Below the pieces are notes generated by a model, which did no database searches, was not told the DNA's origin, and worked only from the letters and a program-made list of their open reading frames with translations. This document shows, in pieces, positions 1 to 32,724 of a DNA stretch of 60,839 nt. This DNA comes from Thermoplasmata archaeon (GTDB taxonomy: Archaea > Thermoplasmatota > Thermoplasmata > Lutacidiplasmatales > UBA184). A program made the translations under genes and the position numbers. Location: contig JAKIVU010000007.1 in the NCBI GenBank assembly GCA_022750375.1, positions 1 to 60,839 of the forward strand, in the 5' to 3' direction. Position 1 is the stretch's first letter. Every line of letters starts with the position of its first letter.

Positions 1-96
1 GGGATTCGAACCCAGGTCTGAGGCTCCGCAGGCCTCTAGGATAATCCATTGCAGCAGGCTGGGCAGGGGCCCAACCCGTAGCTACCCCACACGGGC
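1..96 (-). tRNA. tRNA-Arg(GCG) with a 31-nt D-loop intron (49..79); 3' acceptor strand cut off by the window edge
   Basis: Reverse complement reads GCCCGTG-TG-GGGTAGCT|intron|TGGATTATCCT-A-GAGGC-CTGCGGA-GCCTC-AGAC-CTGGG-TTCGAAT-CCC. Anticodon GCG at 27..29; canonical TTCGAAT T-loop. Confidence 0.9.
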
Positions 97-139
97 ATCC
101 GGGTGTGTATCCGTTCCCGGCGCGCCGAGGGGGGCGCTG

Positions 140-146
140 TATAAAA
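140..146. promoter_or_regulatory. TATA-box-like element between the divergent tRNA-Arg and gatD
   Basis: TATAAAA/TTTTATA island in GC-rich intergenic DNA, about 44 nt upstream of the tRNA 5' end. Confidence 0.5.
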
Positions 147-230
147 GCCCGGGGCCGGAAATTTCGCCATCAATGTGACCGTTAAGAGCCGGGGAGTCTC
201 CTCGACCGACCGGAGCACTCCGCAGGATCC

Positions 231-1550
231 ATGGAAGGTTCGGATCGCGACGACCCGTGGGACGCCCTGCGGGCGCTTCCGACCGGGCGGCGGGTCGAAC
301 TCACGGACGAGCGCGGGCAGAGTTGGAGTGGCACGATCGTACCCCGCCAAGAGAGCTCGGGCCACCGGGTCCTCCTCCTCAAGCTCGACTCCGGTTACAA
401 CGTTGGAATCGTCGTGCAACCGACGTTTCGTTTTCGCCTGATCGAGGCGACCGCCGCGCCCGACCCCATCCCCGCACCCTCGGCGCCCGGCGGTGACGCA
501 ACGGTTGCCGACGGGCCGTGGGTCGCGCTGCTGACGACGGGGGGGACGATCGCCTCGCGGGTCGACTACGAGACCGGCGGAGTGCGGCCCGTCAAGGACG
601 AACGCGAGATCCTGGCGTTCTATCCCGAACTGGAGTCGAACGGTCGAGTCCGCATATTGCCCGTCTTCGACCGGCTGAGCGAGGACATCGTACCGAACGA
701 TTGGCTCACTCTCGCAACGAAGGCGGTCGACGCGTTTCGCGACGGAGCCCGGGGCGTGGTCATCGCGCACGGGACCGACACGCTTGCGTTCACCGCAGCG
801 GCACTGAGCTTCCTTCTCACGGACCTCCCCGGGCCGGTCGTCCTGGTCGGCGCGCAACGCTCCCCGGATCGGCCGTCGTCGGACGGGCCATCGAACCTGG
901 CCGCGGCGGTCCGCGTGGCGCGCGAGGGATCCTTCGGGGAAGTGGTGGTCGTCATGCACGCGACACTCTCGGACGGCCGATTCGCGGTCCACCGGGGGAC
1001 ATGGGTGCGCAAGATGCACTCGAGCCGCCGCGACGCCTTCAAAAGCCGCAACGGACCGCCCCTCGGATTCGTCGATACCTCCGGTCTCCACCTGGAACGA
1101 CCGGCGCGGCCAGCGACCGCGGGTCCCCCCCGGGTGGACGGACCCCTGGACCCGCACGGTGGACTCCTGTGGTTCTACCCGGGCCTTACGCCCGCGAAAG
1201 CGGAGTCGTTCGCCGAGGGAATGAGGGGCCTGGTGCTCGCCGGCACGGGGTTGGGTCACGTCGGCTCGGAACACCTCGAATGGATCCGCCGGGGGGTGCA
1301 GCGAGGGCAGGTCATCGGGATGACCACCCAGTGCCTGGAAGGGAACGTCGACCCGTTCGTCTACGCCACCGGTCGGGAGCTGCAGCGTGCGGGGGTGCTC
1401 TACCTCGGCGACCTGCTCCCGGAGGTCGCCTACGCGAAACTCCTGTGGGCCCTCGGTCGCGCGTCGGACCCGAGGGCGGTCGAGGCGCTCCTCCTGTCCG
1501 AGGTCGCCGGAGAATTCCACTGGCGCCACGAGTCGGGAGGGGATTCGTGA
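231..1550 (+). CDS. gatD: Glu-tRNA(Gln) amidotransferase subunit D
   Basis: Asparaginase-like motifs TTGGTIASRVDY, HGTDTL, GAQRSPDRPSSD and KMHSSRRDAF; N-terminal beta domain; directly followed by gatE. Confidence 0.96.
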   Translation: MEGSDRDDPWDALRALPTGRRVELTDERGQSWSGTIVPRQESSGHRVLLLKLDSGYNVGIVVQPTFRFRLIEATAAPDPIPAPSAPGGDATVADGPWVALLTTGGTIASRVDYETGGVRPVKDEREILAFYPELESNGRVRILPVFDRLSEDIVPNDWLTLATKAVDAFRDGARGVVIAHGTDTLAFTAAALSFLLTDLPGPVVLVGAQRSPDRPSSDGPSNLAAAVRVAREGSFGEVVVVMHATLSDGRFAVHRGTWVRKMHSSRRDAFKSRNGPPLGFVDTSGLHLERPARPATAGPPRVDGPLDPHGGLLWFYPGLTPAKAESFAEGMRGLVLAGTGLGHVGSEHLEWIRRGVQRGQVIGMTTQCLEGNVDPFVYATGRELQRAGVLYLGDLLPEVAYAKLLWALGRASDPRAVEALLLSEVAGEFHWRHESGGDS

Positions 1551-3415
1551 AAGTCGGTCTCGAGGTCCATCAACAGCTGGCGACCGGAAAGTTGTTCTGC
1601 GACTGCCCGAGCGAGCTGTCGGAGGTAGTGTACGGGTCGTTCGCCCGGCGCCTCCGCTCGGCGAGCGGAGAGAACCGAACGGTCGACCCGGCGGCCGCGT
1701 TCCAGGCTGCGCGGGGATTGCTCTTCCGATACGAGGTCACCGACTCCACGTGCCTCGTCGACATGGACGAGGAGCCGCCGCACCCGCTCAACCCCGCCGC
1801 GCTCGACGTCGCGCTCACGCTCGCGCTGCTGCTCGAGGCGCGCCCCGTGGACGAGATCGCGGTCATGCGAAAGATCGTGGTCGATGGGTCGAACACCGCC
1901 GGATTTCAACGCACGGCGCTGGTGGCGGTCGACGGCCACCTCGACCTCCACGGCAAGCGATACTCGATCGCGTCGATCTGCCTTGAGGAGGATGCGGCGC
2001 GAAAGGTCGGGGAAGCGAACGGAGAAGTCACCTACCGCCTCGACCGACTCGGGATCCCGCTGGTCGAGATCGCGACCGCTCCCGAGATCGAAGCTGGGGT
2101 GGAGGCGCGGGAGGTCGCCGAGGAGATCGGGGCGCTCGTCCGGGCCACGCGTCAGACCCGCCGCGGGATCGGGACGATCCGCGAAGACGTCAACGTCTCG
2201 GCGGACCGGGGCCGGCGGATCGAGATCAAGGGAGTCCAAGAATTACGGAAGATCCAAGAGTACGTCGGTCGAGAGGTCGATCGGCAGGAGGTCCTGCTCG
2301 CCGTCCGAGACGAGCTACATCGGCGAGGCGCGGCCGCCCCCTCGGAAGAGACCGTCGACGTATCTTCCGTCCTGGCGTCGATCGCGAGCGGACCGCTCGC
2401 CGGGGCGAGCCGAAGAGGGGGGGCCGTCCTCGCGCTTCGGCTCCCCGGGTTTGCGGGACTTTTGAGGGAGCCCGCGGGGTCGGACGAGCGACTCGGTCGC
2501 GAACTCGCCGACCAGGCACGCGCGGTCGGCCTCCGGGGCCTCCTCCACTCCGACGAGCTCCCCGCCTTTGGCCTGGAGGTCGGCGACGTGGAACGGATTC
2601 AGGCGACGCTCGGGCTCGGACCGAACGACGCGTTCGTGCTCGTCACCGACCCGGACCGAGCACGGGCGACGGTCGCACTGCGACGGGTCGCGGCACGGGC
2701 CGCCGAGGCGATCGAGGGGATTCCCGGCGAGACCCGGGACCCGCTGCCCGACGGGCGAAGTCGATACTCCCGACCGCTCCCCGGAAGGGAGCGCATGTAT
2801 CCGGAAACCGACATCCCTCCGATCACGGTCACGGCCGAGCATCTCGCCCGTCTCGCGTCGCGGCTGCCGGAACGTCCCGCCGCGTTGCGCGAGCGCCTCG
2901 CGAAGGAGACCGGACTCGCGCGGGAGGTCATTCTGCAGGTCGTTTCCGCCGGTCAGGCGGACCTGTTCGAGGAGCTGGTCCGGCGCAAGCACAGCCCGGC
3001 GCTCGTCGCACGACTCTTGATCCAAGACGTTCCGGCCATCCCCCATGCAGAGGGCGAGACCCCACCGGACTTCTCCCTCGCCGTTCTCGACGATCTCTTG
3101 GTGGAGCAGGAAGCGGGGCGCTTTGCAAAGGAAGGTATTCCGAACGTGCTGGTCGAGCTGTCCCGGGGGGCGCCGACCGTGTCCGCGGCGGTGGCTCGTG
3201 CCGGGCTCTCCGGGTTCACCGCCTCCGAACTCGAGACGCTGATCGGACGGGTCCTGGCACAGAATGAGTCACTGCTACGGAGCCGGGGCAACGAGGCGTT
3301 CTCCGCCTTGATGGGGGACGTGATGCGCGAAGTGCGCGGGCGCCGGGACGGTCAGGAGGTCTCTGAGGCACTGCGACGGGCGATCGCCCAGCGCCCATCG
3401 GACCCCGCGGCGTAG
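1547..3415 (+). CDS. gatE: Glu-tRNA(Gln) amidotransferase subunit E
   Basis: GTG start overlaps the gatD stop (GTGA). Motifs KVGLEVHQQL, KLFC, RKIVVDGSNTAGFQRT, LEEDAAR, DRLGIPLVEI, RMYPETD. The ORF-track extension back to 518 is spurious. Confidence 0.96.
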   Translation: MKVGLEVHQQLATGKLFCDCPSELSEVVYGSFARRLRSASGENRTVDPAAAFQAARGLLFRYEVTDSTCLVDMDEEPPHPLNPAALDVALTLALLLEARPVDEIAVMRKIVVDGSNTAGFQRTALVAVDGHLDLHGKRYSIASICLEEDAARKVGEANGEVTYRLDRLGIPLVEIATAPEIEAGVEAREVAEEIGALVRATRQTRRGIGTIREDVNVSADRGRRIEIKGVQELRKIQEYVGREVDRQEVLLAVRDELHRRGAAAPSEETVDVSSVLASIASGPLAGASRRGGAVLALRLPGFAGLLREPAGSDERLGRELADQARAVGLRGLLHSDELPAFGLEVGDVERIQATLGLGPNDAFVLVTDPDRARATVALRRVAARAAEAIEGIPGETRDPLPDGRSRYSRPLPGRERMYPETDIPPITVTAEHLARLASRLPERPAALRERLAKETGLAREVILQVVSAGQADLFEELVRRKHSPALVARLLIQDVPAIPHAEGETPPDFSLAVLDDLLVEQEAGRFAKEGIPNVLVELSRGAPTVSAAVARAGLSGFTASELETLIGRVLAQNESLLRSRGNEAFSALMGDVMREVRGRRDGQEVSEALRRAIAQRPSDPAA

Positions 3416-3433
3416 AGCAGCCTGGAGTGCCCC

Positions 3434-4198
3434 GTGCCCCGGTCGATTCGATCGAAAGCCGTCCCCCGCCCGCGCCCCCGGTTGCGGGCGGTGGTCACGG
3501 ACGTGGACGGGACGCTCACGGGTCCGGATCGCCGACTCGACACCCGAGCGATGCACGCCGTCCGCTGGCTGGAATCACACGGGATTCCTGTCGTGCTCGC
3601 GACGGGCAACGTGCTCCCGATCGCACTCGCCCTCCACCGTTCGCTCGGCCTCACGGGACCCATCGTCGCGGAGAATGGCGGGCTCGTGTACCGCAAGGTC
3701 GAAGGGAAGGACGAGGTCGAACGTCTGGCCCACCGGCCCGTCGCGCTGGCGGCGTACCGCGCGCTGCGGGCGGAGGGCCTGCCCGTTCGTCGACTTTTCA
3801 CCGACCGATGGAGGGAAACGGAGGTCGCGATCGAATCCGATGTTCCGCTGGTCCAAGTCCGCCGGGCGCTCGCGAAACAGAAGATCCGGGTGCAATCGAT
3901 CGGGACCGGCTATGCCATCCATCTGATGGAGCGAGGCTCGGGCAAGCTGCCGGCGCTTCGGCGAGCGCTGCGGCCGATGCACCTTCGCGTGTCGGAGTGC
4001 GTCGTGCTCGGAGACGGTGACAACGACGCGGGAATGCTGCGGGCTTCCGGCTTCGGGGTGAGCTTCGCTTCCGGGAGTCCGCTCGCGCGTCAGGCGGCCC
4101 GGTACGTCGCCCGCTCGTCCTTCGCCGAGGGGTTCGTCGAAGGGCTTAAGGCCAGTGGCATACTCCCGCGTCATAGTTCCTTTCCGGGAGGGAACTGA
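3434..4198 (+). CDS. HAD-family phosphoglycolate phosphatase (archaeal Cof/TA0175 type)
   Basis: DVDGTLT motif I, LATGN motif II, AENGG, K...GDGDND motif IV. Confidence 0.85.
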   Translation: MPRSIRSKAVPRPRPRLRAVVTDVDGTLTGPDRRLDTRAMHAVRWLESHGIPVVLATGNVLPIALALHRSLGLTGPIVAENGGLVYRKVEGKDEVERLAHRPVALAAYRALRAEGLPVRRLFTDRWRETEVAIESDVPLVQVRRALAKQKIRVQSIGTGYAIHLMERGSGKLPALRRALRPMHLRVSECVVLGDGDNDAGMLRASGFGVSFASGSPLARQAARYVARSSFAEGFVEGLKASGILPRHSSFPGGN

Positions 4199-4201
4199 GC
4201 A

Positions 4202-4423
4202 GTGCTCGTCGGTCAGTGCGCGCGGTGCGGATTGCCAGCGTCGCTCGGGTGCACTGTCTGCGGACGGACGTTCTGCCGGAATGACCTTGACGCGGACGAG
4301 CGGATCTGCTCGGACTGCGCGGCGTCGCTCAAGAACGCGAAAGGACCCGTCTCGGCACGGAGCCCGCCCTCGCGGAGAGTGTCGTCTCGGGCGCGCGCAC
4401 CCGCGCTCGGTCGTGTTCAGTAG
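4202..4423 (+). CDS. Small Cys-rich zinc-finger protein
   Basis: CARC..CTVC..CRND..CSDC pattern; starts 3 nt after the upstream stop. Confidence 0.7.
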   Translation: MLVGQCARCGLPASLGCTVCGRTFCRNDLDADERICSDCAASLKNAKGPVSARSPPSRRVSSRARAPALGRVQ

Positions 4424-4734
4424 TCGGTTCCCGGAAGGACGAGTCGTCCTTTCGGGGTCGCCTGGCCCACGAAGAGCATGCCCACTCCGACGGCCCCGGT
4501 CATCAGACCGAATCCGAACGCCGCCCACGCGTAGGTGCCGACGACGTGCCCGAACCAGATCCCGGCCACGGTCAGCCCGCCGGTCGGGGCGACCATGTGC
4601 AGGCCCAGGTTGACGAGGACGCCGAGCCCCCAGCCGAGGAAGATCAGCGTCGCGCCCGCGAGGAAGTTGCCCGAGCGTTCGTCGCCGCCGTAGTCCGTCG
4701 GAGGGACCGCCGGCGTCTCTTGGAGGTCGACCAC
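4417..4734 (-). CDS. Small two-TM membrane protein, unknown function
   Basis: Two hydrophobic segments (FLAGATLIFLGWGLGVLVNLGL; TYAWAAFGFGLMTGAVGVGMLFV). GTG start chosen by eye. Confidence 0.65.
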   Translation of the reverse strand: MVDLQETPAVPPTDYGGDERSGNFLAGATLIFLGWGLGVLVNLGLHMVAPTGGLTVAGIWFGHVVGTYAWAAFGFGLMTGAVGVGMLFVGQATPKGRLVLPGTDY

Positions 4735-4786
4735 GGAGAGCCGACTTTCGAGGGGCGTATAGTCGTTTCGCTTGAGGCGTGCTACG

Positions 4787-6250
4787 CTACCACACGAGGT
4801 TCCCGGACCGTGCGCGGCGGAGTTCCTGGGGGGCGCGCCGCCGGAGAAGTCGCCACCCGAGGAAGAGGGCGGCAACGCGCCCGTGGGGGTCGCGTTGGAA
4901 CCGAACCTGCGCGTCGTGACCCCCGACTCGGAGGACGAAACGGTCGTCGCCCGCGGGTCGAAGGCGGAGTCCCTGTTCCGTCGCCTCGATGCCGTGGAAA
5001 TCGAACCGGAGGTGGTTCCGGTGGGCGGTCGACCGGACCCAGATCCCTTCGCCGGAGCAGAACCATCCCTCGTACGGGGTCAACGAGCCGCGGAAGGGCG
5101 TCGGCCGAGGGACTTGATCGAGGGGCGTGGTCAGAGGCAGTCCCCGCCGTGCGTTCAGCGCGGCCATGAGAACGAGGGGGGCCGAAACCCCCTCCGCGTT
5201 CGTGAGCACGACTCCCCCCAGGTGTCGGTCCGGCGCCACGACGAAGAACGACGAGACACCGGGAAGGCCGCCGGAGTGCTCCACCAGTAGGGTGCCGTGG
5301 TGGTCGGGGTGCACGGCGACCCCGTACCCATACCAGGTTCCGGGAAACAGCTCGGCATACGGCGTGGTCATCTTCCGCACCGACGCCGCAGAGAGGATGC
5401 GATTTCCTTCGACCTTCCCCCCGGTCAGGTAGATCTGGAGGTAGCGGGAGAGGTCCTCCACGTTCGACCGGAGTCCCCCGGCGGCACGCAGGCAGGTATC
5501 GTTCCACCACTCATGGGACGGGACGAAGCCGTGGCGGACGCCGGTCCGTTTCGGCGAATAGAGGGTCGTCACCTCGGGGAACCGGAAGAGGATCCCCGGG
5601 TCGAACGTCGTCGAATGCATCCCCGCGGGTCGCAGGACCTGCTCCTCGAGGTAACTTTCGTGAGACTGGCCGCTGACGCGCTCGATGATCGCCCCGAGCA
5701 GACCGAAGCCTTCGTTCGAGTAGCTGAAGTATCGCCCCGCGGGGCCGAGGAGCCGGTACCTCGAGGTCCGAAGGAACTCGAGGATCTGCTCGTAGGTGTC
5801 GATCGGGGCGTGGTCCGGGTCGATGCCGACCCGACGGGCGACGCGCGGGTCGAACGGAAGGTCGTCCCCGCGACTCCGGGCCGTGGTATAGTAGATCGAG
5901 GGAAGGGGCGGGAGGCCCGAGGTGTGGGTAAGGAGGTGGTGGATCCGGATGCGGCGGGTCGCCCGGACGTCCGGGGTGGCGAACTCGGGCAGGTGACGGA
6001 CCACCGGGTCGTCGGTGGAGAGCTTTCCGTCCTCCTCGAGGCGGAGGATCGCCATCGCGGTGAACGACTTCGTGATGGAGGCGATGCCATAGACGGTGCG
6101 GGGAGAGGTCGGGAGCTCGGACTCCCGGTCCCGGAACCCGTAGCCCCGGAACGACGGTCGTCGCCCCTTCTCCACCACGGCGACGGAAGCCCCCGGGACC
6201 TTCCATCGGCGCATCCAGCGCCGGAGGAACTCGTCGGGACTCTTCGTCAT
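4787..6250 (-). CDS. Serine hydrolase, beta-lactamase class C / penicillin-binding-protein-like family, with a C-terminal accessory domain
   Basis: SxxK (ASITKSF), LLTHTSGL, YSN (FSYSNEGF) and HSGG motifs. Confidence 0.9.
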   Translation of the reverse strand: MTKSPDEFLRRWMRRWKVPGASVAVVEKGRRPSFRGYGFRDRESELPTSPRTVYGIASITKSFTAMAILRLEEDGKLSTDDPVVRHLPEFATPDVRATRRIRIHHLLTHTSGLPPLPSIYYTTARSRGDDLPFDPRVARRVGIDPDHAPIDTYEQILEFLRTSRYRLLGPAGRYFSYSNEGFGLLGAIIERVSGQSHESYLEEQVLRPAGMHSTTFDPGILFRFPEVTTLYSPKRTGVRHGFVPSHEWWNDTCLRAAGGLRSNVEDLSRYLQIYLTGGKVEGNRILSAASVRKMTTPYAELFPGTWYGYGVAVHPDHHGTLLVEHSGGLPGVSSFFVVAPDRHLGGVVLTNAEGVSAPLVLMAALNARRGLPLTTPLDQVPRPTPFRGSLTPYEGWFCSGEGIWVRSTAHRNHLRFDFHGIEATEQGLRLRPAGDDRFVLRVGGHDAQVRFQRDPHGRVAALFLGWRLLRRRAPQELRRARSGNLVW

Positions 6251-6313
6251 CTCTCCCGCGGCACGGCGCGCGGGTTGAAGAGGCGCGCGGAAGGGCCGAG
6301 TGGGGTCCAGCGA

Positions 6314-6607
6314 CTAGCCGAACCCGGTCGCCGCCTTCGGGTCCTTCGCCGACGGGCGCAAGGGCGCCTTGCGGAGTTCCTTCGGGCACTCCACCAGGCG
6401 AACGAGGGGCGCCGACTGGACGACGTACGCGGGGAGGCCCGTGTTCGGGTCGTTGCCCGCGCGGAGGATGTTCATGATCTCGAGGCGGATCTCGACCACC
6501 GAGCCGTCCTTGAGCTTCAGGCGGACCTTCCCGTCCCCGCCGATCGTCTCGTAGTCGACGATCTCGGCGTTCGCGAGGTCCGGAGGAGGACCTCCCGGAC
6601 CCATCAT
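6314..6607 (-). CDS. Hypothetical protein, translationally coupled to rpl11
   Basis: ATGA overlap with the rpl11 stop; natural beta-rich composition (VRLKLKDGSVVEIRLEI...NDPNTGLPAYVVQS). Confidence 0.75.
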   Translation of the reverse strand: MMGPGGPPPDLANAEIVDYETIGGDGKVRLKLKDGSVVEIRLEIMNILRAGNDPNTGLPAYVVQSAPLVRLVECPKELRKAPLRPSAKDPKAATGFG

Positions 6608-7071
6608 CGGGCGCCCCGGGCCGCGACGCGCGTCTTCAGCAGGGCGCGGGGGTCCTCGCCGTCGACCGTGAGCCCGAGGGAGACGCAGGTGCCGATCACC
6701 TGGTTCATCTTTTCTTCGACCGAGCGACCGTGCATGTCGTCGCCCTTCGCCTCCGCGATGCGCTTCACGGCATCCAGGCTGACGTCGCCGACGACCTCGG
6801 TCTTCGCCTTCCCCGACCCCTTCTCCTTTCCGGCTTCCTTCAACAGGAGCGCCGCGACCGGGGGCCGGCCCACGACGAGGGTGAACGCGCGGGTGGCCGG
6901 ATTGACCTTGACGACCACCGGGACGCGCATCCCCGCGAACTGCTTGGTGAGTTCGTTGATCTGCGCGACGACCAGGCCGACGTTCACTCCGAGCGGACCG
7001 AGCGCGGGGCCGAGCGGTGGACCGGCGGAGGCCCTGCCGCCCTCGACGAGGACGCTGACCTCATCCGCCAC
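6604..7071 (-). CDS. rpl11: 50S ribosomal protein L11 (uL11)
   Basis: VEGGRASAGPPLGPALGPLGVN, GMRVPV, PPVAALL, GTCVSLG. Confidence 0.97.
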   Translation of the reverse strand: MADEVSVLVEGGRASAGPPLGPALGPLGVNVGLVVAQINELTKQFAGMRVPVVVKVNPATRAFTLVVGRPPVAALLLKEAGKEKGSGKAKTEVVGDVSLDAVKRIAEAKGDDMHGRSVEEKMNQVIGTCVSLGLTVDGEDPRALLKTRVAARGAR

Positions 7072-8062
7072 TCTTTCCCACCCCCTTTTCTAGCATGCGG
7101 ACGTGGTCGCCCCGGACCGTGACCGGGATCGGTACGACCGCCTCGATGAGCTCCACCGTGATCTCTTCCTTGGCCTGGTCGATCTTCTTGACGCGGGCCT
7201 TTTCGCCCTTGAACGGTCCCGAGATAAGCTCGACGATCGCGCCCTCGACGAACCCTTCGACCGTGATCTTCGGGACGAGGAGCGGTTCGACCTCTTTCAG
7301 CGTCGTCTCCCCGTCCACGAGACCGCGGGCCTTGCGGATGCCTTTCAGCATCTCGCGGACCCCTTCGAAGCTCATCCCCTCCGCGAAGACGTATCCGCGA
7401 AGCGACGACGGCACGAGGAGGGCGAACACGACGTCGGCCTTCTCGTCCGTGCGGGCGTGCAGGGTGTCGGCGACCTCGCGTTCGTAGCCGCGGGACGTCT
7501 TGATCGCGAGGACGGCCTGGCGGGCCACGGAGGCGAGCGTGAGTCGGAGCGCGGGGCTTCCGTCCGGGTCGTGCACCGTCAGCCGGATCTCCACGCGGTC
7601 GCCATATCGTACCCCGACGGGAGCCGTGATCTCGAACGAGAGCGGGACCCCGGTGCCGGGGAGGATCGTGACCGGATGGGTGACCTTGCGGGCAAACAGT
7701 TCCGTCGCGCTTCGCTTCCCCGGTGGCGTCCAACGGACCGGCCACTCGGCGCCCTCCCCCGGGTACGTGGAAGTGTACGCGACCTCGATGCCGATCGGGA
7801 TGGTCAGCGAGTCGGCGGCCTTGCTCGTGAGCACCGCCGAGAGGGTCGTGATCGTCCCGGCCGTGACCTCGCGCGGGCCTTCTTCGGCCGCTTTCAGGGT
7901 GAGGACCGCCGAGACCTGGGGCTTCGCGGGGGCCGGAGGCGCGGGTGCGACCACGGGCGTCGCCGCGGGCGGAGCGGCCGTCGTCGCCTTCTTTTCCGGT
8001 GCGACCGGTGGAGTACCGGAGAGAAGACCGATGCCTTCGCCATCCTCTTGGGTCACTGCCAT
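7061..8062 (-). CDS. spt5: Transcription elongation factor Spt5 (NusG) with an approximately 185-aa N-terminal extension
   Basis: C-terminal NGN (KTSRGYE, LRGYVFAE) plus KOW (VELISGPFKGEKARV, TVELIEAVVPIPVTV). ATG at 8062 has an upstream AGGAGG Shine-Dalgarno. Confidence 0.92.
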   Translation of the reverse strand: MAVTQEDGEGIGLLSGTPPVAPEKKATTAAPPAATPVVAPAPPAPAKPQVSAVLTLKAAEEGPREVTAGTITTLSAVLTSKAADSLTIPIGIEVAYTSTYPGEGAEWPVRWTPPGKRSATELFARKVTHPVTILPGTGVPLSFEITAPVGVRYGDRVEIRLTVHDPDGSPALRLTLASVARQAVLAIKTSRGYEREVADTLHARTDEKADVVFALLVPSSLRGYVFAEGMSFEGVREMLKGIRKARGLVDGETTLKEVEPLLVPKITVEGFVEGAIVELISGPFKGEKARVKKIDQAKEEITVELIEAVVPIPVTVRGDHVRMLEKGVGKSGG

Positions 8063-8087
8063 GCCTCCTGGACTCCGCGGGCGGAAC

Positions 8088-8333: not shown

Positions 8334-8342
8334 GTTCGATCC

Positions 8343-9470: not shown

Positions 9471-9505
9471 GGCGGTAACCCTATCGGCGGAAGAGCAGTG
9501 GCCAC

Positions 9506-9513: not shown

Positions 9514-9538
9514 GCGTCTGTCGGCTCGGGCCTCAGAG

Positions 9539-15407: not shown

Positions 15408-15416
15408 CAATAATTC

Positions 15417-24376: not shown

Positions 24377-24420
24377 CGCCGCCAAGGGCTAAGACAAGTC
24401 GCGATTCGGGGGAGTCGACC

Positions 24421-25698
24421 ATGGGCTCCGGTGGGACGGCATCGGAAGCGTCGACGACCTGCCGGGTATGCGGAGCCGCCGCGGGGGTGCGCGCCTTCCT
24501 GTCGCTGGGTGACCAACCGCTCGGGAACGCCTTCATTCCCGCGAGCGCGATCGCCTCGGAGCGGGAGTTCCCGCTCACGATGGGTGTTTGCTCCCGCTGC
24601 CACCTGGTCCAGATCGTGGCACCGGCCCCCGTCGAGGCGATCGAGCAGGTGTACCGGAACTATTCGTACGTCCCGACGGGCGCGACGCTCGCGCAGCACT
24701 ACGGCGCGCTCGCGGGGGATATCGTCCGCATCGTCGAGCCGAAGGCGGAGGCGCAGTTCCTGGACATCGGCAGCAACGACGGGCTCCTCCTACGGTCGAT
24801 TCGGGAGCGCGTGCCGGCGGCACGGATCGGGGGGGTGGAACCCTCGCCCCGGATTGCCGAGATCGCTCGCTCCCTCGGCGTCCCAACGATCAACGGATTC
24901 TTCGACTCCGCGGCGGCCGACGAGGTGATGTCACGGTTCGGTCGCATCGACGTGGCCAGCGCCACACAGGTATTGCAGCACATCCGCGACCCGGAGGCGT
25001 TCCTGAGGTCCGTGGCAAGGATTCTCAACCCCGACGGAGTGCTGGTCCTTGAGGGCCGGGCCTACTTTCCCGACGTGGCGGAAAAGATCTCGTTCGATAC
25101 TTTCTACCACGAGCTGCTCTACTGTTTCACCCTTCACTCGCTCGAACAGCTACTCGGCTTGGCGGGGTTCACGGTGTTTCACGCGGAACGGAGCGACGTC
25201 TACGGGGGCTCGCTCCGGGTGTTCGCGCAGCTTCGGAACGGCGGAACTCGCGCCGTCCAAGCCTCCGTGGGGAACATTTTGACAGCGGAGATCGCCGCGG
25301 GAATACCGGGCTTCGAAGTGTACGCGACGTTCGCTCTTCGGGTGGCGGCGGTGCGCACGCGGTTGTCGACGACCGTGAGCGAACTCTTGTCGACGGGAGC
25401 GACGATCGCCGGCTACGGGGCCCCCTCCACGGGAACCACACTGCTCCGCTACTGCGGGCTCGGCCACGATGTGCTGCAGTACATCGTCGACGACAACCCG
25501 CTGAAACAAGGGCTCGTCACTCCCGGGACCCACGTACCGATCTCCCCGTCCTCTGCGCTCGTGGAGCGGCCCCCCGATTTCGTTCTGGTCATCGCGTGGC
25601 GGCTGAGAGAGGATATTCTGTCGCGGCTCGCCCCCCTGCGCGGCGACCGGATCAAGGGAGTCATCTTTCCGCTGCCGACTCCCGAACTCGTCCGCTGA
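24421..25698 (+). CDS. NDP-sugar C-methyltransferase-like class I SAM methyltransferase
   Basis: CRVC...LGDQPLGN...CSRC Zn site, LDIGSNDG, GVEPS, FDTFYHE, GGSLR, YGAP, YIVDDNPLKQG..TPG, AW..I. Confidence 0.9.
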   Translation: MGSGGTASEASTTCRVCGAAAGVRAFLSLGDQPLGNAFIPASAIASEREFPLTMGVCSRCHLVQIVAPAPVEAIEQVYRNYSYVPTGATLAQHYGALAGDIVRIVEPKAEAQFLDIGSNDGLLLRSIRERVPAARIGGVEPSPRIAEIARSLGVPTINGFFDSAAADEVMSRFGRIDVASATQVLQHIRDPEAFLRSVARILNPDGVLVLEGRAYFPDVAEKISFDTFYHELLYCFTLHSLEQLLGLAGFTVFHAERSDVYGGSLRVFAQLRNGGTRAVQASVGNILTAEIAAGIPGFEVYATFALRVAAVRTRLSTTVSELLSTGATIAGYGAPSTGTTLLRYCGLGHDVLQYIVDDNPLKQGLVTPGTHVPISPSSALVERPPDFVLVIAWRLREDILSRLAPLRGDRIKGVIFPLPTPELVR

Positions 25699-25763
25699 GT
25701 GGAGCCTACCCCCCTCACGTGCCGGCGGGCGGGCGTCGGGCCCGATCGGCGAGGTTCTGGAAC

Positions 25764-26738
25764 TTAGGATCGGTTCCCTGGCGCGCTCGCTTCCCGGAGG
25801 ATCTCGGGAAGTGCCGTATCGACCGTCTGACGACAGCGCAGGTCGAGCAACCGTTCGGTATCCACTCGGGACACGGCGAACTCCGGTTCGATCAGCTCCA
25901 CCCCTCCCCGAGGGTTCGGCACCACGTCCACCCGCAAGGGGACGGCGTCAGGATGCTGCAGCTGGAACGCATTTCGGACTTTATCGGCGACCTGAAGGAC
26001 GTTCAGTGCCTCGCCACTCGCAACGTTGAACGTCGTGGGTTCGGAGCGCGCGCCCGGACGAAGGAGGAATCTAGCGATGGCCTCCCAGTGCGCAACGACA
26101 TCGTCGATGTGAACGAAGTCCCTGCGTTGAGTTCCCGGGGCGTTCACCGCGAGTCGGCCCCGTGCCGCCTGCTGAGCAAAGAGCTGCAGGACGTTCCCCT
26201 TCGCGATATACCGTCCGTCCGTGCGATACCCCCCGTAGACGTTGCTCTGGCGAACGACAGCGGTCGGGAGGGGCCCACCCTGGCCGAGCGCCGTGATCAA
26301 CTCTTCGCCGGCCGCTTTCTGGCGGGCGTACTCGTGGGTTGGTCGAGCGGGCGTGGACTCTCGAACCGGGAGCTCGGCCGGTGCGCCCACGACGGCGAAA
26401 CTGCTGGCGAAAGCGATCGGGATCCGTCGCGACCCACACATCGCGACCAGCTTCGCGGTACCCCCGACATTCGTCCGGGCGCTCCCCTCGGGGTCGCGCG
26501 CGCAGGCCATCACCCCCGAGACGGCCGCCAGGTGGAGGATCGCATCGCAGTCCGCAAGCAGCGCGAGTCCTCGCGCGCTCTCGAAATCGTCCCGATCCAC
26601 GGGCCATGCGGGGTGGCCCACCTCCATCGGGCCGGTACGATTGTCGACCAATCGAAGGTCGTACTGCCGTTCCGCAAGGTACGGAATCAGGGCTCCGCCA
26701 ATGAAGCCTGTCGCGCCGGTAACGCCGACCGTGACCAT
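25764..26738 (-). CDS. NAD-dependent epimerase/dehydratase (extended SDR)
   Basis: GATGFIG, HLAA, ASS, YARQK, NVYG, RDFVHIDD, FNVASG. Confidence 0.92.
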   Translation of the reverse strand: MVTVGVTGATGFIGGALIPYLAERQYDLRLVDNRTGPMEVGHPAWPVDRDDFESARGLALLADCDAILHLAAVSGVMACARDPEGSARTNVGGTAKLVAMCGSRRIPIAFASSFAVVGAPAELPVRESTPARPTHEYARQKAAGEELITALGQGGPLPTAVVRQSNVYGGYRTDGRYIAKGNVLQLFAQQAARGRLAVNAPGTQRRDFVHIDDVVAHWEAIARFLLRPGARSEPTTFNVASGEALNVLQVADKVRNAFQLQHPDAVPLRVDVVPNPRGGVELIEPEFAVSRVDTERLLDLRCRQTVDTALPEILREASAPGNRS

Positions 26739-26974
26739 CGCTGCGCGCGCGAGACCCCGGCGGAGTTAAGGCTTGGCAGGACGGACGCGTGAGGTTCGAA
26801 AAAACGCGCTCGAGGCGGGGAGCGCCAACTCCGCGGACCGCGCATGCCCTTTTGAGCGGGGGCCAATTTCCCTTCCTCGATGGCGTCGCGTGCAAGGGCT
26901 CGCCGGCCCCGGGCTGAGCCGCGCCGCCTCCGCACCGCACGATCCATCTTCTCGACCCGGACAGGGAGGGACGG

Positions 26975-28141
26975 TTGACCACACGAATCGCGGTCGTCCG
27001 CGGCGTCGAGCAGATCAACGGCGGCGAGTTGGGCATTTATTCCCGTCTGCGAAAATTCGGTTACGATGTCGAGCTCCTCTGCAACACCCGGAGCCGAATC
27101 ACCGAGGCCGAAGCAGGGATGCGGATTCGACGCCGCAGCACCCCCTTCGTCGCGAGCCGGATTACCCAGACCGTCCCCGGAGGATTCCTAGTCGGTCTGG
27201 TGTCTCCCTATCGGTACTACCACCAGTATCTGACGGGATTCTCGAAGGCGGTGCGAGACGACGATGTGCTGTGTCCCGTCGACCTCGGACACCCGACGAG
27301 CTATCAATCAATCCAGGAACGGAAGCTCGGCAAGAAAGTGGTCGTTCAGTGCTGGGAGAATATCCCGTTCAACTGGCCACACGACCGGCCGCTGCACGAG
27401 CACTTCGAGGCAGTCCTCGACGGCGCGGACCATTTCCTTGCATTTACCCAGGACGCCGAGCGCGCACTCTCCACCATGGGCGTTCGGTCGGAACGGCTCT
27501 CCCGACTCAACATCGGGCTCGACCTCGACCACTGGAAGCCCGGAACGGATCCGAAGCCCCCCGGCGAAAAGCTGCGGGTCCTCTTCGTGGGTCGGTTGCA
27601 TTGGAGCAAGGGCGTTCACACGGTGATCGAGGCGATCGATCAGGTACGGACCCCAGTCGAGCTCACGATCGTGGGAGCTGGACCGGAAGAGACCCGTCTG
27701 CGATGGTTGGTCGAGCAGCGTCGGAGGCGAGGTAATGCCACGGCCGCGACGGCCGTCCGGTTCGTGGGACCGAAGTTCGGGGATGAGTTGGTTCGACTTC
27801 GTCAAACGATGGACGTCCAAGTCGTCCCCTCGATCCCGACGCCCCAATGGCGCGAGCAGCTGAACCAGTCCATGTTGGAGGGGATGGCCTGTGGACTTCC
27901 TCCCGTCGCCTCTCAGAGCGGTGCCATCACGGAGGCGGTCACGGACGGAGAAAACGGGTGGCTCGTTCCCGCCGACCGCTCCGTGGACCTCGCCGCGACG
28001 CTCGAGCGAGTGGCTTCGGATCCGGACGAGCGGCTCCGGAGGGGCCGGGCCGCTCGAGGTCGGATCGAACGGGACTACGAGCTCGTGCGTCAAAGTCAAG
28101 CGCTGGCGGATGTGATGCGAACGAAGATCCGTCCGCCCTGA
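26975..28141 (+). CDS. Glycosyltransferase family 4
   Basis: FVGRLHWSKG; EX7E motif EQLNQSMLE; PVASQSG; NGWLV. Confidence 0.92.
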   Translation: MTTRIAVVRGVEQINGGELGIYSRLRKFGYDVELLCNTRSRITEAEAGMRIRRRSTPFVASRITQTVPGGFLVGLVSPYRYYHQYLTGFSKAVRDDDVLCPVDLGHPTSYQSIQERKLGKKVVVQCWENIPFNWPHDRPLHEHFEAVLDGADHFLAFTQDAERALSTMGVRSERLSRLNIGLDLDHWKPGTDPKPPGEKLRVLFVGRLHWSKGVHTVIEAIDQVRTPVELTIVGAGPEETRLRWLVEQRRRRGNATAATAVRFVGPKFGDELVRLRQTMDVQVVPSIPTPQWREQLNQSMLEGMACGLPPVASQSGAITEAVTDGENGWLVPADRSVDLAATLERVASDPDERLRRGRAARGRIERDYELVRQSQALADVMRTKIRPP

Positions 28142-28156
28142 ATCGTCGCTCCTCGC

Positions 28157-29326
28157 CTAGCTGCGGACAGGACTCGCCAGCGCCGCGGCGTAGATCGAGA
28201 GCAATCGGTCCAGGTGTCGCTCGGGTGAAAACTCTTCCTGGACCCAGTTCCGTCCCGCGAGCGCGGTCGCCCGCGCCTCGGGGTAGTGGTCCATCAATTG
28301 GAGCAGAGCGGCGGCGAGCGCCGGCGGGTCACCGGGCGGGATGACGGTCCCGAACTTTCCCACGGTTTCCGGAAGTCCCCCCGAGTCGGTCACCACCACG
28401 GGGATCCCGTGAGCGAGCGCCTCGATCGGGGAGTTGCCCAGGTTCTCCCAGGGAAGCGAGGGGACCGCCAGGAGGTGGATCCGGTCGAACCAGCGGTGGC
28501 TGTCGGGGACCCATCCATCCACGAAGACCCCGTCGACGGCGGGGATAGGAACGGGGCCAGAGCCTGCGAATCGAAGCTGCGCATCCGGCCGGGACTTCCG
28601 CACCGTCGCGAACGCGTCCAGGAGGACCTCGACCCCCTTCTGTCGCTCAAATCGTCCCAAGAATCCGATCGTGAACGGTCCTGGCGGGGTCGGCGTGGGC
28701 TCGGCCGGTGCCGGGATCATCGGACGTAAAAGGTCGGTGGGGCGATACCCGAGGTTCTCGAAGATTCGTTGCGTCGCATGACTGACGCAGATGAACGATC
28801 GAACGCGTCCCTTCACGTGGGTATCGAAATAGTGCCGCTTCGCCAGGTTGAGCGGAAGTCCGATCCCGACCTCACAGCCGGTGAACTGGCAACGAGGCAG
28901 GATCCCTCCGGGGCAGGCGGTGCCGTCCGGCAGCGTGAGGGTGGCGACCGGGCAGACGAGCTCGGCGTCGTGCGCCGTGAAGACGATCGGCTCCGACCGT
29001 CCCCCGAGCCAAGGTCCGAGGGCCGAGAAGCCGGCGTGAAACCGATGGAGATGGATGATGTCCGGACGGACGTCCGCGGCGACCTGGTCCAGGAATCGGG
29101 TAAGGGGGCCTCCTTCCGCGAAACCCGAGAGGGCCTGTCGCGCGGGGGAACGGGGGACGAGATAGACCCGTACCGGCTCCAGCTTTTCGGGAACCGGGTC
29201 GGTCACGATGGCAGCCGTCACGTTGGTGTGGCCTCGTGCGTCGAGCGCCTGAGAGACGCGGCGGACGTAGACTTGAGCACCCCCACCCGCGGGGCCGTCC
29301 CATCCGTCCAGCCGCAGAATTTTCAT
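28157..29326 (-). CDS. Glycosyltransferase family 4 with a Cys-rich insert
   Basis: GGAQVY, H....C P, FLGRFERQKG, ENLGNSPIE, VVTDSGGLPE. Confidence 0.92.
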   Translation of the reverse strand: MKILRLDGWDGPAGGGAQVYVRRVSQALDARGHTNVTAAIVTDPVPEKLEPVRVYLVPRSPARQALSGFAEGGPLTRFLDQVAADVRPDIIHLHRFHAGFSALGPWLGGRSEPIVFTAHDAELVCPVATLTLPDGTACPGGILPRCQFTGCEVGIGLPLNLAKRHYFDTHVKGRVRSFICVSHATQRIFENLGYRPTDLLRPMIPAPAEPTPTPPGPFTIGFLGRFERQKGVEVLLDAFATVRKSRPDAQLRFAGSGPVPIPAVDGVFVDGWVPDSHRWFDRIHLLAVPSLPWENLGNSPIEALAHGIPVVVTDSGGLPETVGKFGTVIPPGDPPALAAALLQLMDHYPEARATALAGRNWVQEEFSPERHLDRLLSIYAAALASPVRS

Positions 29327-29571
29327 CGCCGCTCACTCCCGACCGTCGCGGGCAATCTCACAGAAGCGATTCAATCGGAGCGGAGTCACGAACTACCTGC
29401 GGCTAATGAGGGTGGGGCGTTGATAAGGGCTCGTCGACCGGTGAACGACCCGAACCCCCGGCGACAGCGCAACGGAACCGGGTCTCGGCGAACAACCGCC
29501 GCGCGACGAACGATTCATGCTCTGAGCCGGCCTATACCTTTTCGTTCGTGGGGTTCCGAGCGATGCTGTCG

Positions 29572-30294
29572 ATGTTTTGTGCATTATGCGCGGCACCCCT
29601 AGTTCCCGGTGCGCCGTTCTGTCCAAATTGTGGAAGATCTCAGCCCCTGCCCGGTCCCGACGTGAGGAGCGGTCCCCCACCGAATTGGGCGCCGATTCCG
29701 GGCTCCGGGAGCGCTGCGCCCGGCGCCTCGGAGTTGCCGTCGGCGTTGATCGCCATCCTTGTGGTGGTCATCGTCCTGTTCGCGGCGGTGTTCAGCTTCG
29801 TCGCATTCTTTGCGACCGTCGGCCCGGGCATCGGTCCCGGAGAGACCCCGCTCGGTGCAGTCTTTGCTCCGGGGGATCCGACCCTTAGCCGCTGCCCGGC
29901 CAACAGCAGTTTTGCGTCGGTCGGCTGTGGGGCGGATGACTATGGGTACAACGTGTTCATACTGAACGTCACGGGGGTTCAATTAAGTCAGGTCCAGTTC
30001 GAAGTTCTCATCGCGTCGGGGAACGTGGAGAACGGAACCGGTGGTCTCGGGTTTTCCGTGCTGAACGTCTCGGGAGAGATCGTCGCGCAGTTCGGGACTC
30101 AGGACGGGTTCATGTCGATGAGCTCGGGGTCCTGGAGCTATTCACCGGGGATCAACGCGGCGACTCCTCTCCTCAACTCCGATAGCATCGTCATCGACAT
30201 TGGCCCTCTCGATCCACTCGGGGATGGATACACCTTCGTGGCGATAGGTACCAACGGCATCACCGGAACGACCCACGAGCTGTCCCTCCCCTAG
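29572..30294 (+). CDS. Membrane-anchored protein: N-terminal double zinc ribbon, one TM helix, extracellular beta-rich (pilin/archaellin-like) domain
   Basis: FCALC..FCPNCG, Pro linker, hydrophobic ALIAILVVVIVLFAAVFSFV, then a Gly/Ser/Asn-rich beta domain. Confidence 0.75.
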   Translation: MFCALCAAPLVPGAPFCPNCGRSQPLPGPDVRSGPPPNWAPIPGSGSAAPGASELPSALIAILVVVIVLFAAVFSFVAFFATVGPGIGPGETPLGAVFAPGDPTLSRCPANSSFASVGCGADDYGYNVFILNVTGVQLSQVQFEVLIASGNVENGTGGLGFSVLNVSGEIVAQFGTQDGFMSMSSGSWSYSPGINAATPLLNSDSIVIDIGPLDPLGDGYTFVAIGTNGITGTTHELSLP

Positions 30295-30375
30295 TCCGGC
30301 GCTGCCGTGGAATCTCCCCGGCCGGACACGAAAGCCTATAGGTCGGGACCTGGAGTGTGTCGACGGGCGGGGCGC

Positions 30376-31527
30376 GTGAGGATCGTTCTTCCCGTCTTTC
30401 GGTACGTGCCCGCGCTCGGCGGCGCCACCCGATTGGTACAACTCATCGCCGAGGGGTCCGCGACCCGGGGGCATTCGGTCACGGTCGTCACCCAAGAGGA
30501 GCCGGGAGCCCCGCCGGAAGAAACGATTGCGGGAGTGCGCGTGCTCCGTCTGGGAATGCGACACATCGGAGGCATTCGCGTTCCGAAGGGGTATCTTCGC
30601 CTCCTGCGGTCTCTCGAGCCCGACGTCCTCGAGCTGAACGGCAACCGAATCTGGTGCTCGGACTTCTATTTCCCGTCGGCGCGGTCGTTCGAGTGGCCCC
30701 AGGTCATCCAGCCGATGGGGTTCTACCACTACTGGATGCGCCGCGGGTTGGTCCGGTGGCTGTACTACGACCAGTACCTCCCCGGTCGCCTCCGCGCGTT
30801 CGATGGCTATGTCGCCCTGACCGACGCCGAGCGCGACCAGGTGGTAGGGTGGCGGTACCCGTCGAACAAAGCCCACGTCATTCCCGTCGGGATCGACCTC
30901 GCAGAGTTCGCCCGACCGCCGGAGAGCTCCGCGGCGGTGCGGGCGTCCTGGGGGTTCTCCGTCCCGCACGTCGCGGTGTACACCGGGGGGCTGTACGACA
31001 ACAAGCGCGTGGATCGGCTCGTCCGGGCCCTCGCGGGAACCGGGGGAACTTGGGGACTGGTCGTCATCGGCTCGGACGTGCCCGGGACGGCGTACGACCG
31101 CGCGCACTGCGAACGTCTGGCGCGCGACCTATCGGTACCGGTTCGATTCGTGGGCGCGGTTCCGAGGGCAACGGTACTGGCCGCTCTGTTCGAGGCCGAC
31201 GCCTACGTTCAGGGAAGCGCGTTCGAGGGTTTCGGCATCGGCCTACTGGAGGCGATGGCCGCCGGTCTGCCGTTCGTCGCGTTCAACACGGGCGCGGCGG
31301 AAAGTCTGAGTCGCACGGGGGCCGGATTCTGCGTGCGATCCGAGGAGGAGATGGCCGCACGACTTCGCGACGTGGGGGAGCGCCACGCCGAGATGGCGCA
31401 GGCGGCACGAAGCGCCGTGGTCAACTGGTCGGCCGAGCGGATGGTCGACCGACACCTCGAACTCTTCCGGTCGATCCAGCGAAACCCGACCGGCGGCGGA
31501 GCCCTCGCCCCCCCGGCGGATGTCTAG
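30376..31527 (+). CDS. Glycosyltransferase family 4
   Basis: GG...H.VTV, IPVGID, GGLYDNKRVD, EGFGIGLLEAMAAG. Confidence 0.93.
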   Translation: MRIVLPVFRYVPALGGATRLVQLIAEGSATRGHSVTVVTQEEPGAPPEETIAGVRVLRLGMRHIGGIRVPKGYLRLLRSLEPDVLELNGNRIWCSDFYFPSARSFEWPQVIQPMGFYHYWMRRGLVRWLYYDQYLPGRLRAFDGYVALTDAERDQVVGWRYPSNKAHVIPVGIDLAEFARPPESSAAVRASWGFSVPHVAVYTGGLYDNKRVDRLVRALAGTGGTWGLVVIGSDVPGTAYDRAHCERLARDLSVPVRFVGAVPRATVLAALFEADAYVQGSAFEGFGIGLLEAMAAGLPFVAFNTGAAESLSRTGAGFCVRSEEEMAARLRDVGERHAEMAQAARSAVVNWSAERMVDRHLELFRSIQRNPTGGGALAPPADV

Positions 31528-32558
31528 CGCGTCGCGTGGATCATCCCGCAGACTTCGAAATCGAAGCCGCCCCAGTTGGGCTTGAATCGTCGGATATGCG
31601 AGAAGCCTAGATCGCGGAGCGCCTGGATCAGCTCCCCGACCGTCCGCCCCGGGCGGAAATCCGCGGCGTACTCGATGTGGACCGAAGGGAACTCGCTGAT
31701 CGCGGGTTGACGGACGAGTCCGAACTCCGCGCCCTTGCAGTCGACTTTGAGCAGATGCGGCGGCCCGTCGATCCGGTTCAGGATCGTACGCAAGCTGACC
31801 GAGGGGATGGAGACCGGCGTAGCCCCCCTGACGAAGATGCTCCCGCCGCCTCCTCGGCCGCTGCCGAACTGGACGGTCCCGTCCTCCCAGACGGCCTCGG
31901 CGTGCGTGAAGATCCGTGGGCGGAGGGTTGGATTCAACTCCACGTTCTGCTGGAGCAACCGCGCGTTCCCCGGCTCGGGCTCGTAGGAGTGAACGTTCGC
32001 TCCCAGGCTCGCGAAGTAGAGGGCGGTGTCTCCCACAAACGCCCCGGCATCGACGATGTTCTTCCCCTGGACGTCCGGCCCTGGGAAGTGCAGGTCGTAG
32101 AGGAACGTCTCCGCGAAGATGAGGGGGTGAAGTGAGTCGAGGGTGAATCGGATCTTTGAGGGCGTGTCGATGAGTCCCGGGGCCAGTGAAACGCCCCACT
32201 TGGTGGGGTCGTCTCCATTCAAGGGGCCGAGCGTCGCACCGTACGACGCGAGTTCGACCAGCTTCCGGATCGTCGTGTAGTTGACGCGGTCGACCGGGAG
32301 CGCGAACCCGCCGGGGAAGCGCAGCACCGACCGACCGCCGAGTCGGCGGACCTTCCAGAGGACCTGTGGGTTCTCGGCACCGGTCGCCTGTCCGTGGAGG
32401 TCATCGAATAGCCACGAGAGCCGGGTGCGAAGGGCGGGCTTGACGGTCACGCGCTGCTCCGCGGTGGGGCTCGCGGCGTTCGGGGTGCCCGTCCCCGAGT
32501 GACTCGCGAGCCCGGGAGCCGGCCCGGGAGGCGACGTGGCAGCCCCGGAGTCGCTCAT
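31524..32558 (-). CDS. FkbM-family methyltransferase
   Basis: IVDAGAFVGDTA, YEPEP, LLKVDC.GAE. The longer ORF-track call runs through the tRNA and is rejected. Confidence 0.88.
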   Translation of the reverse strand: MSDSGAATSPPGPAPGLASHSGTGTPNAASPTAEQRVTVKPALRTRLSWLFDDLHGQATGAENPQVLWKVRRLGGRSVLRFPGGFALPVDRVNYTTIRKLVELASYGATLGPLNGDDPTKWGVSLAPGLIDTPSKIRFTLDSLHPLIFAETFLYDLHFPGPDVQGKNIVDAGAFVGDTALYFASLGANVHSYEPEPGNARLLQQNVELNPTLRPRIFTHAEAVWEDGTVQFGSGRGGGGSIFVRGATPVSIPSVSLRTILNRIDGPPHLLKVDCKGAEFGLVRQPAISEFPSVHIEYAADFRPGRTVGELIQALRDLGFSHIRRFKPNWGGFDFEVCGMIHATR

Positions 32559-32615
32559 GCCCGGCCCCGCGAACGCTGCAGGCTCCCCTCGTGTGGAAGA
32601 AACGGTGGGGACCGA

Positions 32616-32724
32616 TGGGGCTGCCCGAATTTGAATCGGGGTCCCGAGCTCCCAAAGCTCGAAGGATGGACCAGTAGAGCGGACCGAGGTTTCTGCCTCG
32701 CGACCGTAGCTACCCCACAGCCCC
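32616..32724 (-). tRNA. tRNA-Pro(TGG) with a 34-nt D-loop intron (32674..32707)
   Basis: Reverse complement reads GGGGCTG-TG-GGGTAGCT|intron|TGGTCCATCCT-T-CGAGC-TTTGGGA-GCTCG-GGAC-CCCGA-TTCAAAT-TCGGG-CAGCCCC-A. Anticodon at 32652..32654; CCA not encoded. Confidence 0.93.

Follow-up and report, generated by a model that had tools for sequence, protein, structure and literature searches.

This report concerns two interrupted tRNA genes in a 60,839-nt stretch of DNA from a Thermoplasmata archaeon (contig JAKIVU010000007.1; we refer to the whole stretch as the window). The window is the entire contig C15 of a metagenome-assembled genome (MAG; G000, 0.93 Mb, 67% GC, rated 69% complete). It carries genes for tRNA-Arg(GCG), which the contig end cuts short, and tRNA-Pro(UGG), and both have an insert in the D-loop (Table 1). 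Each is the sole gene that we found for its anticodon. The 16-mer TGTGGGGTAGCTACGG occurs exactly twice in the window, once in each gene (76-91 and 32704-32719, both on the minus strand), and no occurrence is expected by chance (100 shuffles).

Both genes are interrupted between D-loop positions 17 and 17a, and in each the second exon resumes with TGG. If the inserts are removed, both sequences fold into canonical 75-nt cloverleaves, and ARAGORN then calls Pro(tgg) and Arg(gcg). As they stand, neither gene was detected by ARAGORN, by ARAGORN -i, or by the Rfam tRNA model (RF00005): the unspliced Pro gene gave nothing with ARAGORN, and the unspliced Arg gene gave only a truncated and wrong 69-nt model. 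The expected spliced junctions are GGGGUAGCU joined to UGGAUUAUCC in Arg and to UGGUCCAUCC in Pro. Intron-less paralogues confirm the junction, as Pro(CGG) (C7:29696-29770) and Pro(GGG) read GGGGTAGCT-TGGTCCATCC or GGGGTAGCT-TGGACCATCC. Intron-less orthologues of Pro(UGG) from related genera (genus g15 and family f3, see below) carry the same continuous D-loop junction, GGGGTAGCT-TGGTCCATCC.

A scan of public genomes, with each prokaryote species represented by a single genome, found at least 119 stretches that match the interrupted D-arm. Among the 80 matches listed, nearly all are labelled Thermoplasmata or Thermoplasmatota and are from soil and peat MAGs; they include Candidatus Lutacidiplasma silvani AcS3-62 and UBA184. 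(The odd labels among these 80 were "bacterium" on two contigs and "Methanobacteriota" on one.) Since the matches are nearly all from Thermoplasmata, we take the lineage to be the order Lutacidiplasmatales, which is UBA184 in GTDB and was formerly TMEG (PMC9287336). tRNAscan-SE was used in that study, and introns are not mentioned there. Our literature search found no account of tRNA introns in Lutacidiplasmatales.

For the distribution within the order, we used the spliced tRNAs as BLAST queries over 151 genomes and inspected the sequences of selected loci. Of the 147 genomes with a BLAST match, essentially all have the Arg intron, and the Pro intron is found in four genera. In family f1, which includes the source genus (g1), tRNA-Arg(GCG) has the 17/17a intron in every genus. 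Its tRNA-Pro(UGG) has an intron at the same site in genera g1, g16, g19, and g20, is intron-less in g15, and was not found in g17 or g18. In both genera of the AT-rich family f3, the Arg gene has the 17/17a intron and the Pro gene has none. In four other families of the class Thermoplasmata, tRNA-Arg(GCG) is intron-less. We did not find tRNA-Arg(GCG) in family f2; the candidates there were rejected because the pattern matches were coding sequence or Arg(CCG). The tRNA-Pro(UGG) of f2 has a canonical intron of about 30 nt at 37/38 (L208 in G025:C3 and L209 in G027:C15), so the position of the intron in this gene differs between families.

Within genus g1 we recovered insert-bearing orthologues of tRNA-Pro(UGG) from 19 species and of tRNA-Arg(GCG) from 22 species. 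The exons are nearly invariant across these species and the inserts are strongly divergent. (The identity of leucyl-tRNA synthetase, LeuRS, within this genus is only 64%.) All of these introns (41/41) fold into a hairpin that runs from intron base 2 to just before the last six bases, where the next strand, which we call H, begins. Across several genera (33 distinct Arg introns and 25 distinct Pro introns), the first four pairs of this hairpin, helix h', are 94-100% paired, with exchanges among GC, AU, UA, and CG. RNAalifold predicted 13 pairs, and 8 of them have double-sided compensation. The H strand of the Arg intron is CUGC, CUAC, or CUAU, and its pairing with G12-U13-A14-G15 of the D-arm is kept throughout; in the RNAalifold set, the partner of U13 is G in 13 sequences and A in 13. 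The penultimate base of the intron is always A, and the last base in Arg can be any of A, C, G, or T. The Arg intron of family f3 follows the same plan with an AU-rich stem (A-TAAC-AGAAA-GTTA-CTAC-AA), in which the first position of h' shows two compensatory U-A pairs.

The inserts therefore have a 4-bp helix H between exon and intron, a 3-nt bulge at the 5' splice site, and an intron helix h'. This geometry matches that of the canonical intron in tRNA-Met of the same genome, which has H, a 3-nt bulge that is cut after its second base, and then h'. Judging from these comparisons of sequences, we consider both inserts to be genuine introns that are conserved, structurally constrained, and lineage-wide in this order of soil Thermoplasmata. 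A preliminary description of the window had proposed that two tRNAs have introns at an identical site, that the helix of a bulge-helix-bulge (BHB) motif forms on G12-U13-A14-G15, and that such D-loop introns extend across the lineage; our results agree with it on all three points.

We propose that both inserts are archaeal tRNA introns that protein enzymes excise at 17/17a. Given the gene structure, conservation, covariation, distribution, and type of enzyme, we think that this account, including the mechanism and history given here, is very probably correct. Helix H would form in the pre-tRNA when G12-U13-A14-G15 is released from the D-stem and pairs with four bases of the intron, those that stand just before its final two. 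The three-base bulge on the 5' side would consist of C16, U17, and the first intron base, and the hairpin h' of 9-11 bp would start right after it. The bulge on the 3' side would be the last two intron bases and U17a. A splicing endonuclease (EndA) of the alpha'2 type would cut after U17 and before U17a, and an RNA ligase would then join the exons to give the normal D-loop, AGCU-UGG.

Several observations weigh against this proposal. In genera g1, g16, and g20, helix H of the Pro intron is weakened, as CUCU gives a U13-C mismatch and a G12-U pair (in g19, H is a perfect CUAC). Pro also has a competing, perfect GUAG/CUAC register 2 nt downstream. No outer helix h is possible in either gene: G18 and G19 face G11 and G10, so the motif is not of the strict helix-bulge-helix-bulge-helix form (hBHBh'). 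As for the enzyme, PF01974 (EndA) finds nothing in the source MAG, which is 69% complete. And the wild-type alpha'2 EndA of Archaeoglobus fulgidus is reported to hardly cut even a strict BHB in the D-loop (PMC3241643) and to fail on a D-loop HBh' motif (PMC5829648).

Because no outer helix closes the 3' bulge, we assign the motif to a recognised subclass, relaxed HBh'. The GUAG/CUAC register in Pro was rejected: it is absent in Arg, and it would delete G18 or G19. We also rejected the register implied by the fifth pair of RNAalifold (C16-G), which is broken in G028 and in genus g20 (A16). The rival pair, between intron base 2 and base n-6, is kept in 26/26 sequences, two of them with a compensatory U-A pair. 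The register with C16-G would also leave two extra bases relative to the intron-less orthologues.

To see which enzyme might cut these introns, we looked for EndA in the relatives. In 39/41 of them, including 23/24 congeners, EndA is encoded as two tandem PF01974 domains in one open reading frame (ORF) of about 350 amino acids; the two matches are about 540 nt apart and in one frame. An alignment and a comparison with PDB structures indicate that the N-terminal unit lacks the catalytic Tyr and His and that the Tyr/His/Lys triad is in the C-terminal repeat only. The only splicing endonuclease found in this lineage is thus an alpha'2-type EndA. The enzymes of A. fulgidus and Thermoplasma acidophilum (PDB 1R0V, 2GJW, 2OHC) have the same tandem repeats in one chain with the triad in the C-terminal repeat, but they are shorter (289-305 amino acids), and the N-terminal repeat in this lineage does not have the deletion that is seen in A. 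fulgidus. In an alignment of six sequences, no insertion sets the EndA of g1 and f3 apart from those of other Thermoplasmata families, and we did not see a loop of the CSL/L1, ASL/L2, or L3 type (a lineage-specific insertion, either close to the catalytic His or at the C-terminus) in the same alignment. Non-canonical introns are reported to be cut only by enzymes with specific loops, and Cluster II Euryarchaeota have alpha'2 enzymes only (PMC5829648). Whereas the A. fulgidus enzyme hardly cuts D-loop introns in vitro, the enzyme of this lineage would have to process them.

How old are the two introns? We infer that the Arg intron is no younger than the ancestor that families f1 and f3 of Lutacidiplasmatales/UBA184 share. 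It would be older than the Pro intron, as the Arg intron is found in both f1 and f3 and the Pro intron in only part of f1. In a tree of LeuRS, f1 is monophyletic and the grouping (g1,(g16,g20)) is well supported, while g19 joins g15 and g17 weakly (81/83). Within f1, the Pro intron would have been gained twice, or else a single time and then lost precisely in g15. The intron in the putative recipient (Pro) is thus younger than that in the putative donor (Arg), and the flanks in both genes are able to form the same BHB. The 17/17a position would be one of the few sites where an intron that ends in CUAC can form H, and such an intron fits Pro at this site because Pro and Arg share the D-arm GGGGUAGCU.

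The similarity of site raises the question of whether the Pro intron was copied from the Arg intron, either at the DNA level, with gene conversion over the 12 nt of D-arm flank that are identical in the two genes, or through reverse splicing and reverse transcription. This would be transposition limited to tRNAs with a common D-arm, as proposed for Thermoproteales, and the preliminary description had suggested such a spread. The insertion site is the same, the 12 nt of exon upstream of it (TGTGGGGTAGCT) are identical, and the nested distribution, with the older intron in the donor, fits a secondary gain. The Pro intron of g19 ends in GCTACAA or GCTACAT before TGG, and GCTACAA before TGG is also found as a 3' end of the Arg intron. 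The introns are also similar in length and plan: in G003 and G008, both are 34 nt, with two 5-bp stem segments, a one-base bulge between them, and a hexaloop. But the sequences do not show common descent, as the Arg/Pro pair ranks just 33rd of the 66 pairs of introns in G000 (50% identity overall and 48% in the core). Every position that the two have in common is constrained by the BHB (the bulge A, the GC-rich start of the helix, and the complement of GUAG). For the same reason, the ACGG start that the two introns share, which had been taken as an argument for spread, is weak evidence: A is the bulge base, CGG is a GC-rich start of the helix, and the introns of AT-rich relatives begin with ATAA or ATAG. 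Nor does the intron track the D-arm, since a D-loop intron is lacking in four further tRNAs that share it (GGGGTAGCTTGG is found in Pro-CGG, Pro-GGG, and His-GUG, and GGGGTAG in Arg-UCG). We view copying as a tentative explanation that is somewhat on the doubtful side.

Alternatively, the two introns could be independent and share a site only because 17/17a, beside GUAG, is one of the few places in the D-loop where an intron can be spliced. In favour of this, the sequence similarity between the two introns does not exceed the background. The genome also acquires introns readily at many sites (T-loop 59/60, another D-loop site in Lys-UUU, and canonical sites), and in f2, Pro-UGG has a canonical 37/38 intron instead. 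Also, the weak placement of g19 (with the Pro intron) beside g15 (without it) allows two gains. On the other hand, the exact coincidence of site in two tRNAs with an identical D-arm, and the similar size and stem plan, speak against it. To our knowledge there is no source of de novo intron sequence, which also counts against independent origins. We consider independent gains to have close to an even chance of being right. A quite different possibility is that the inserts are retained, either as tolerated expansions of the D-loop or because the genes are pseudogenes, and the failure of ARAGORN and Rfam to recognise the genes could be read that way. We think that this is very improbable: each gene is the sole one found for its anticodon, the exons are under extreme purifying selection, and the splice-competent geometry has been kept through many compensatory changes. 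Furthermore, a hairpin of 31-36 nt that sequesters G12-G15 is incompatible with formation of the D-stem and the elbow.

The two D-loop introns are part of a heavy load of introns in this genome. We found about 28 tRNA genes in the source MAG, and about half of them are interrupted. Besides Arg-GCG and Pro-UGG, tRNA-Lys(UUU) has a D-loop intron, at a different site, and there are four or five canonical introns (in Trp, Tyr, Met, and Leu-UAA). Another six introns, of 23-38 nt, are at T-loop position 59/60, in His-GUG, Arg-UCG, Ala-GGC, Ser-GGA, Arg-UCU, and Lys-UUU (Table 1). The D-loop intron of Lys-UUU is 29 nt, lies after G18 G19 U U, and has UAGG/CCUA as H; the T-loop intron of this gene is 38 nt. 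The T-loop introns have the strict hBHBh' motif: the T-stem supplies the outer helix, and YGAA-like intron ends are paired with UUCR, in a mirror of the anticodon-arm geometry. The T-loop intron in Ala(GGC) is found across the genus, but neither family f2 nor other families of the class have it. Single introns were recovered by deleting one segment and running ARAGORN. Allowing a T-loop intron together with a second intron gave many false positives at 67% GC, so for these we accepted only genes that we validated directly. A search with nhmmer and a home-made tRNA profile added only fragments at contig ends. We also noticed that tRNA-Pro(GGG) is split between the end of C2 and the start of C5, with an overlap between the D-arm and the T-arm; this split is likely due to the D-arm repeat among the three Pro tRNAs.

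Table 1. Interrupted tRNA genes and a neighbouring gene (positions without a contig name are in the window; the others are in contigs of the source MAG; parts of the minus-strand introns are listed in the direction of transcription)
Feature	Position	Strand	Remarks
tRNA-Arg(GCG)	1-96	-	contig end cuts the gene in the T-loop
tRNA-Arg(GCG) 5' exon, positions 1-17, GCCCGTGTGGGGTAGCT	80-96	-	rare single-base changes only, among 22 congeneric species
tRNA-Arg(GCG) D-loop intron, 31 nt	49-79	-	same site in all seven f1 genera and both f3 genera
Arg intron: bulge A	79	-	
Arg intron: hairpin h', 10 bp	78-55	-	
Arg intron: H partner CTGC	54-51	-	
Arg intron: bulge AA	50-49	-	
tRNA-Arg(GCG) 3' exon, 17a to T-loop, truncated	1-48	-	orthologues run on ...AGCACGGGCG
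tRNA-Pro(UGG)	32616-32724	-	
tRNA-Pro(UGG) 5' exon, positions 1-17, GGGGCTGTGGGGTAGCT	32708-32724	-	
tRNA-Pro(UGG) D-loop intron, 34 nt	32674-32707	-	in genera g1, g16, g19, g20; not in g15 or f3
Pro intron: bulge A	32707	-	
Pro intron: hairpin h'	32706-32680	-	
Pro intron: H partner CTCT	32679-32676	-	
Pro intron: bulge AC	32675-32674	-	
tRNA-Pro(UGG) 3' exon, positions 17a-73	32616-32673	-	93-100% identity across genus g1
QueE-like 7-carboxy-7-deazaguanine synthase (radical-SAM)	34347-35066	-	TIGR04349, E 8e-62, below curated cut-off
tRNA-His(GUG), T-loop intron	C1:23037-23143	-	
tRNA-Arg(UCG), T-loop intron	C4:109092-109189	-	
tRNA-Ala(GGC), T-loop intron	C16:16233-16332	+	
tRNA-Ser(GGA), T-loop intron	C16:93351-93468	-	
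tRNA-Arg(UCU), T-loop intron	C16:22961-23067	-	
tRNA-Lys(UUU), two introns	C9:29727-29869	+	clean cloverleaf with both introns removed

Near tRNA-Pro(UGG), a mechanically derived ORF of 511 amino acids (31524-33059, minus strand) runs across the tRNA gene, and only amino acids 335-451, with an FkbM methyltransferase domain, look real. This coding sequence may be over-extended by gene callers that are blind to tRNA-Pro. The QueE-like gene lies 1.6 kb upstream of tRNA-Pro on the same strand, with egsA (33165-34274) in between. The preliminary description had pointed to this linkage, and the arrangement is as described; we take it as context only. As ArcTGT is present in the lineage and a QueE-like gene is in the window, G15 is probably an archaeosine site. 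Since G15 would be paired in H before splicing, it is plausible that it is modified after splicing.

Elsewhere in the genome, a tRNA gene seems to have served as an integration site. C16:23068-44348 is an island of about 21 kb with lower GC content (57-64%, versus 67-70%). A 20-nt direct repeat, TCGGGCCTGTAGCTTAGCTT, stands at its two boundaries. The 18 nt that begin tRNA-Arg(UCU), together with 2 other nt, make up this repeat, which ends exactly at D-loop position 17a. We interpret the island as an integrated element whose target is the 5' part of a tRNA. That an intron at 17/17a would split such an integration target is no more than suggestive.

Many MAG contigs also stop at one of these genes. 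Contigs that end in or beside tRNA-Arg(GCG) include the window (at position 1), G015:C217, G015:C62, G017:C50, G165:C38, G067:C15, and G119:C10. We considered whether the duplicate copies of tRNA-Arg(GCG) in G090, G146, and G165 are attachment-site repeats and rejected this, as those that are fully readable are complete genes with different introns. The different introns in complete duplicates therefore indicate mixtures of strains. Metagenome assemblies are probably broken by such introns, which are hypervariable and sit between invariant exons.

Introns of this kind are already known; the novelty lies in the lineage that hosts them, in their site, and in the context of the enzyme. The non-canonical BHB/HBh' introns of Crenarchaeota and other archaea (Marck & Grosjean 2003; Sugahara 2008) include short introns in the D-loop whose removal restores the tRNA, and they have the same 4-bp central helix between exon and intron, 3-nt bulge, and intron hairpin. 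However, those introns need an enzyme of the (alpha-beta)2 or epsilon2 type that has a specific loop, or are cut poorly (Methanopyrus kandleri), whereas the host here is an order of Thermoplasmata with an alpha'2 EndA, and conservation of the intron extends to more than 140 species-level genomes. In our literature search, we did not find the exact site 17/17a among the D-loop introns that have been described. Euryarchaeota with alpha4 or alpha'2 endonucleases are described as having few tRNA introns, at 37/38 only (PMC4090602). The large-scale intron transposition proposed for Thermoproteales (Fujishima et al. 2010; summary in PMC4090602) resembles our case in that placement is limited by the BHB and the intron in the second tRNA is younger. 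In that summary, though, the introns of different tRNAs are very similar, while the similarity here is at the background level.

It is possible, although we would not bet on it, that an alpha'2 EndA without a CSL or ASL insertion gained broad specificity in Lutacidiplasmatales, which would be a Cluster II order of Euryarchaeota, and that this let introns proliferate in about half of the tRNA genes found (at D-loop 17/17a, at another D-loop site, at T-loop 59/60, and as double introns) and let the Arg intron be copied into Pro via the shared D-arm. If so, this would be a further and independent structural route to the splicing of relaxed motifs, and a living example of intron spread outside Thermoproteales. 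The most interesting point that follows from our finding is how this EndA would deal with a substrate in the D-loop.

Because ARAGORN and the Rfam tRNA model miss these genes, the tRNA complements and the completeness of these MAGs are underestimated, and where a tRNA goes unrecognised, open reading frames are extended across the gene. More broadly, essential single-copy tRNAs of a widespread order of soil archaea would depend on cuts in the D-loop, which is unexpected for this branch of the archaea. In this order, a second gain of an intron at a kind of site that already existed can be placed in time, and the co-evolution of endonuclease specificity and intron position becomes testable in a concrete case.

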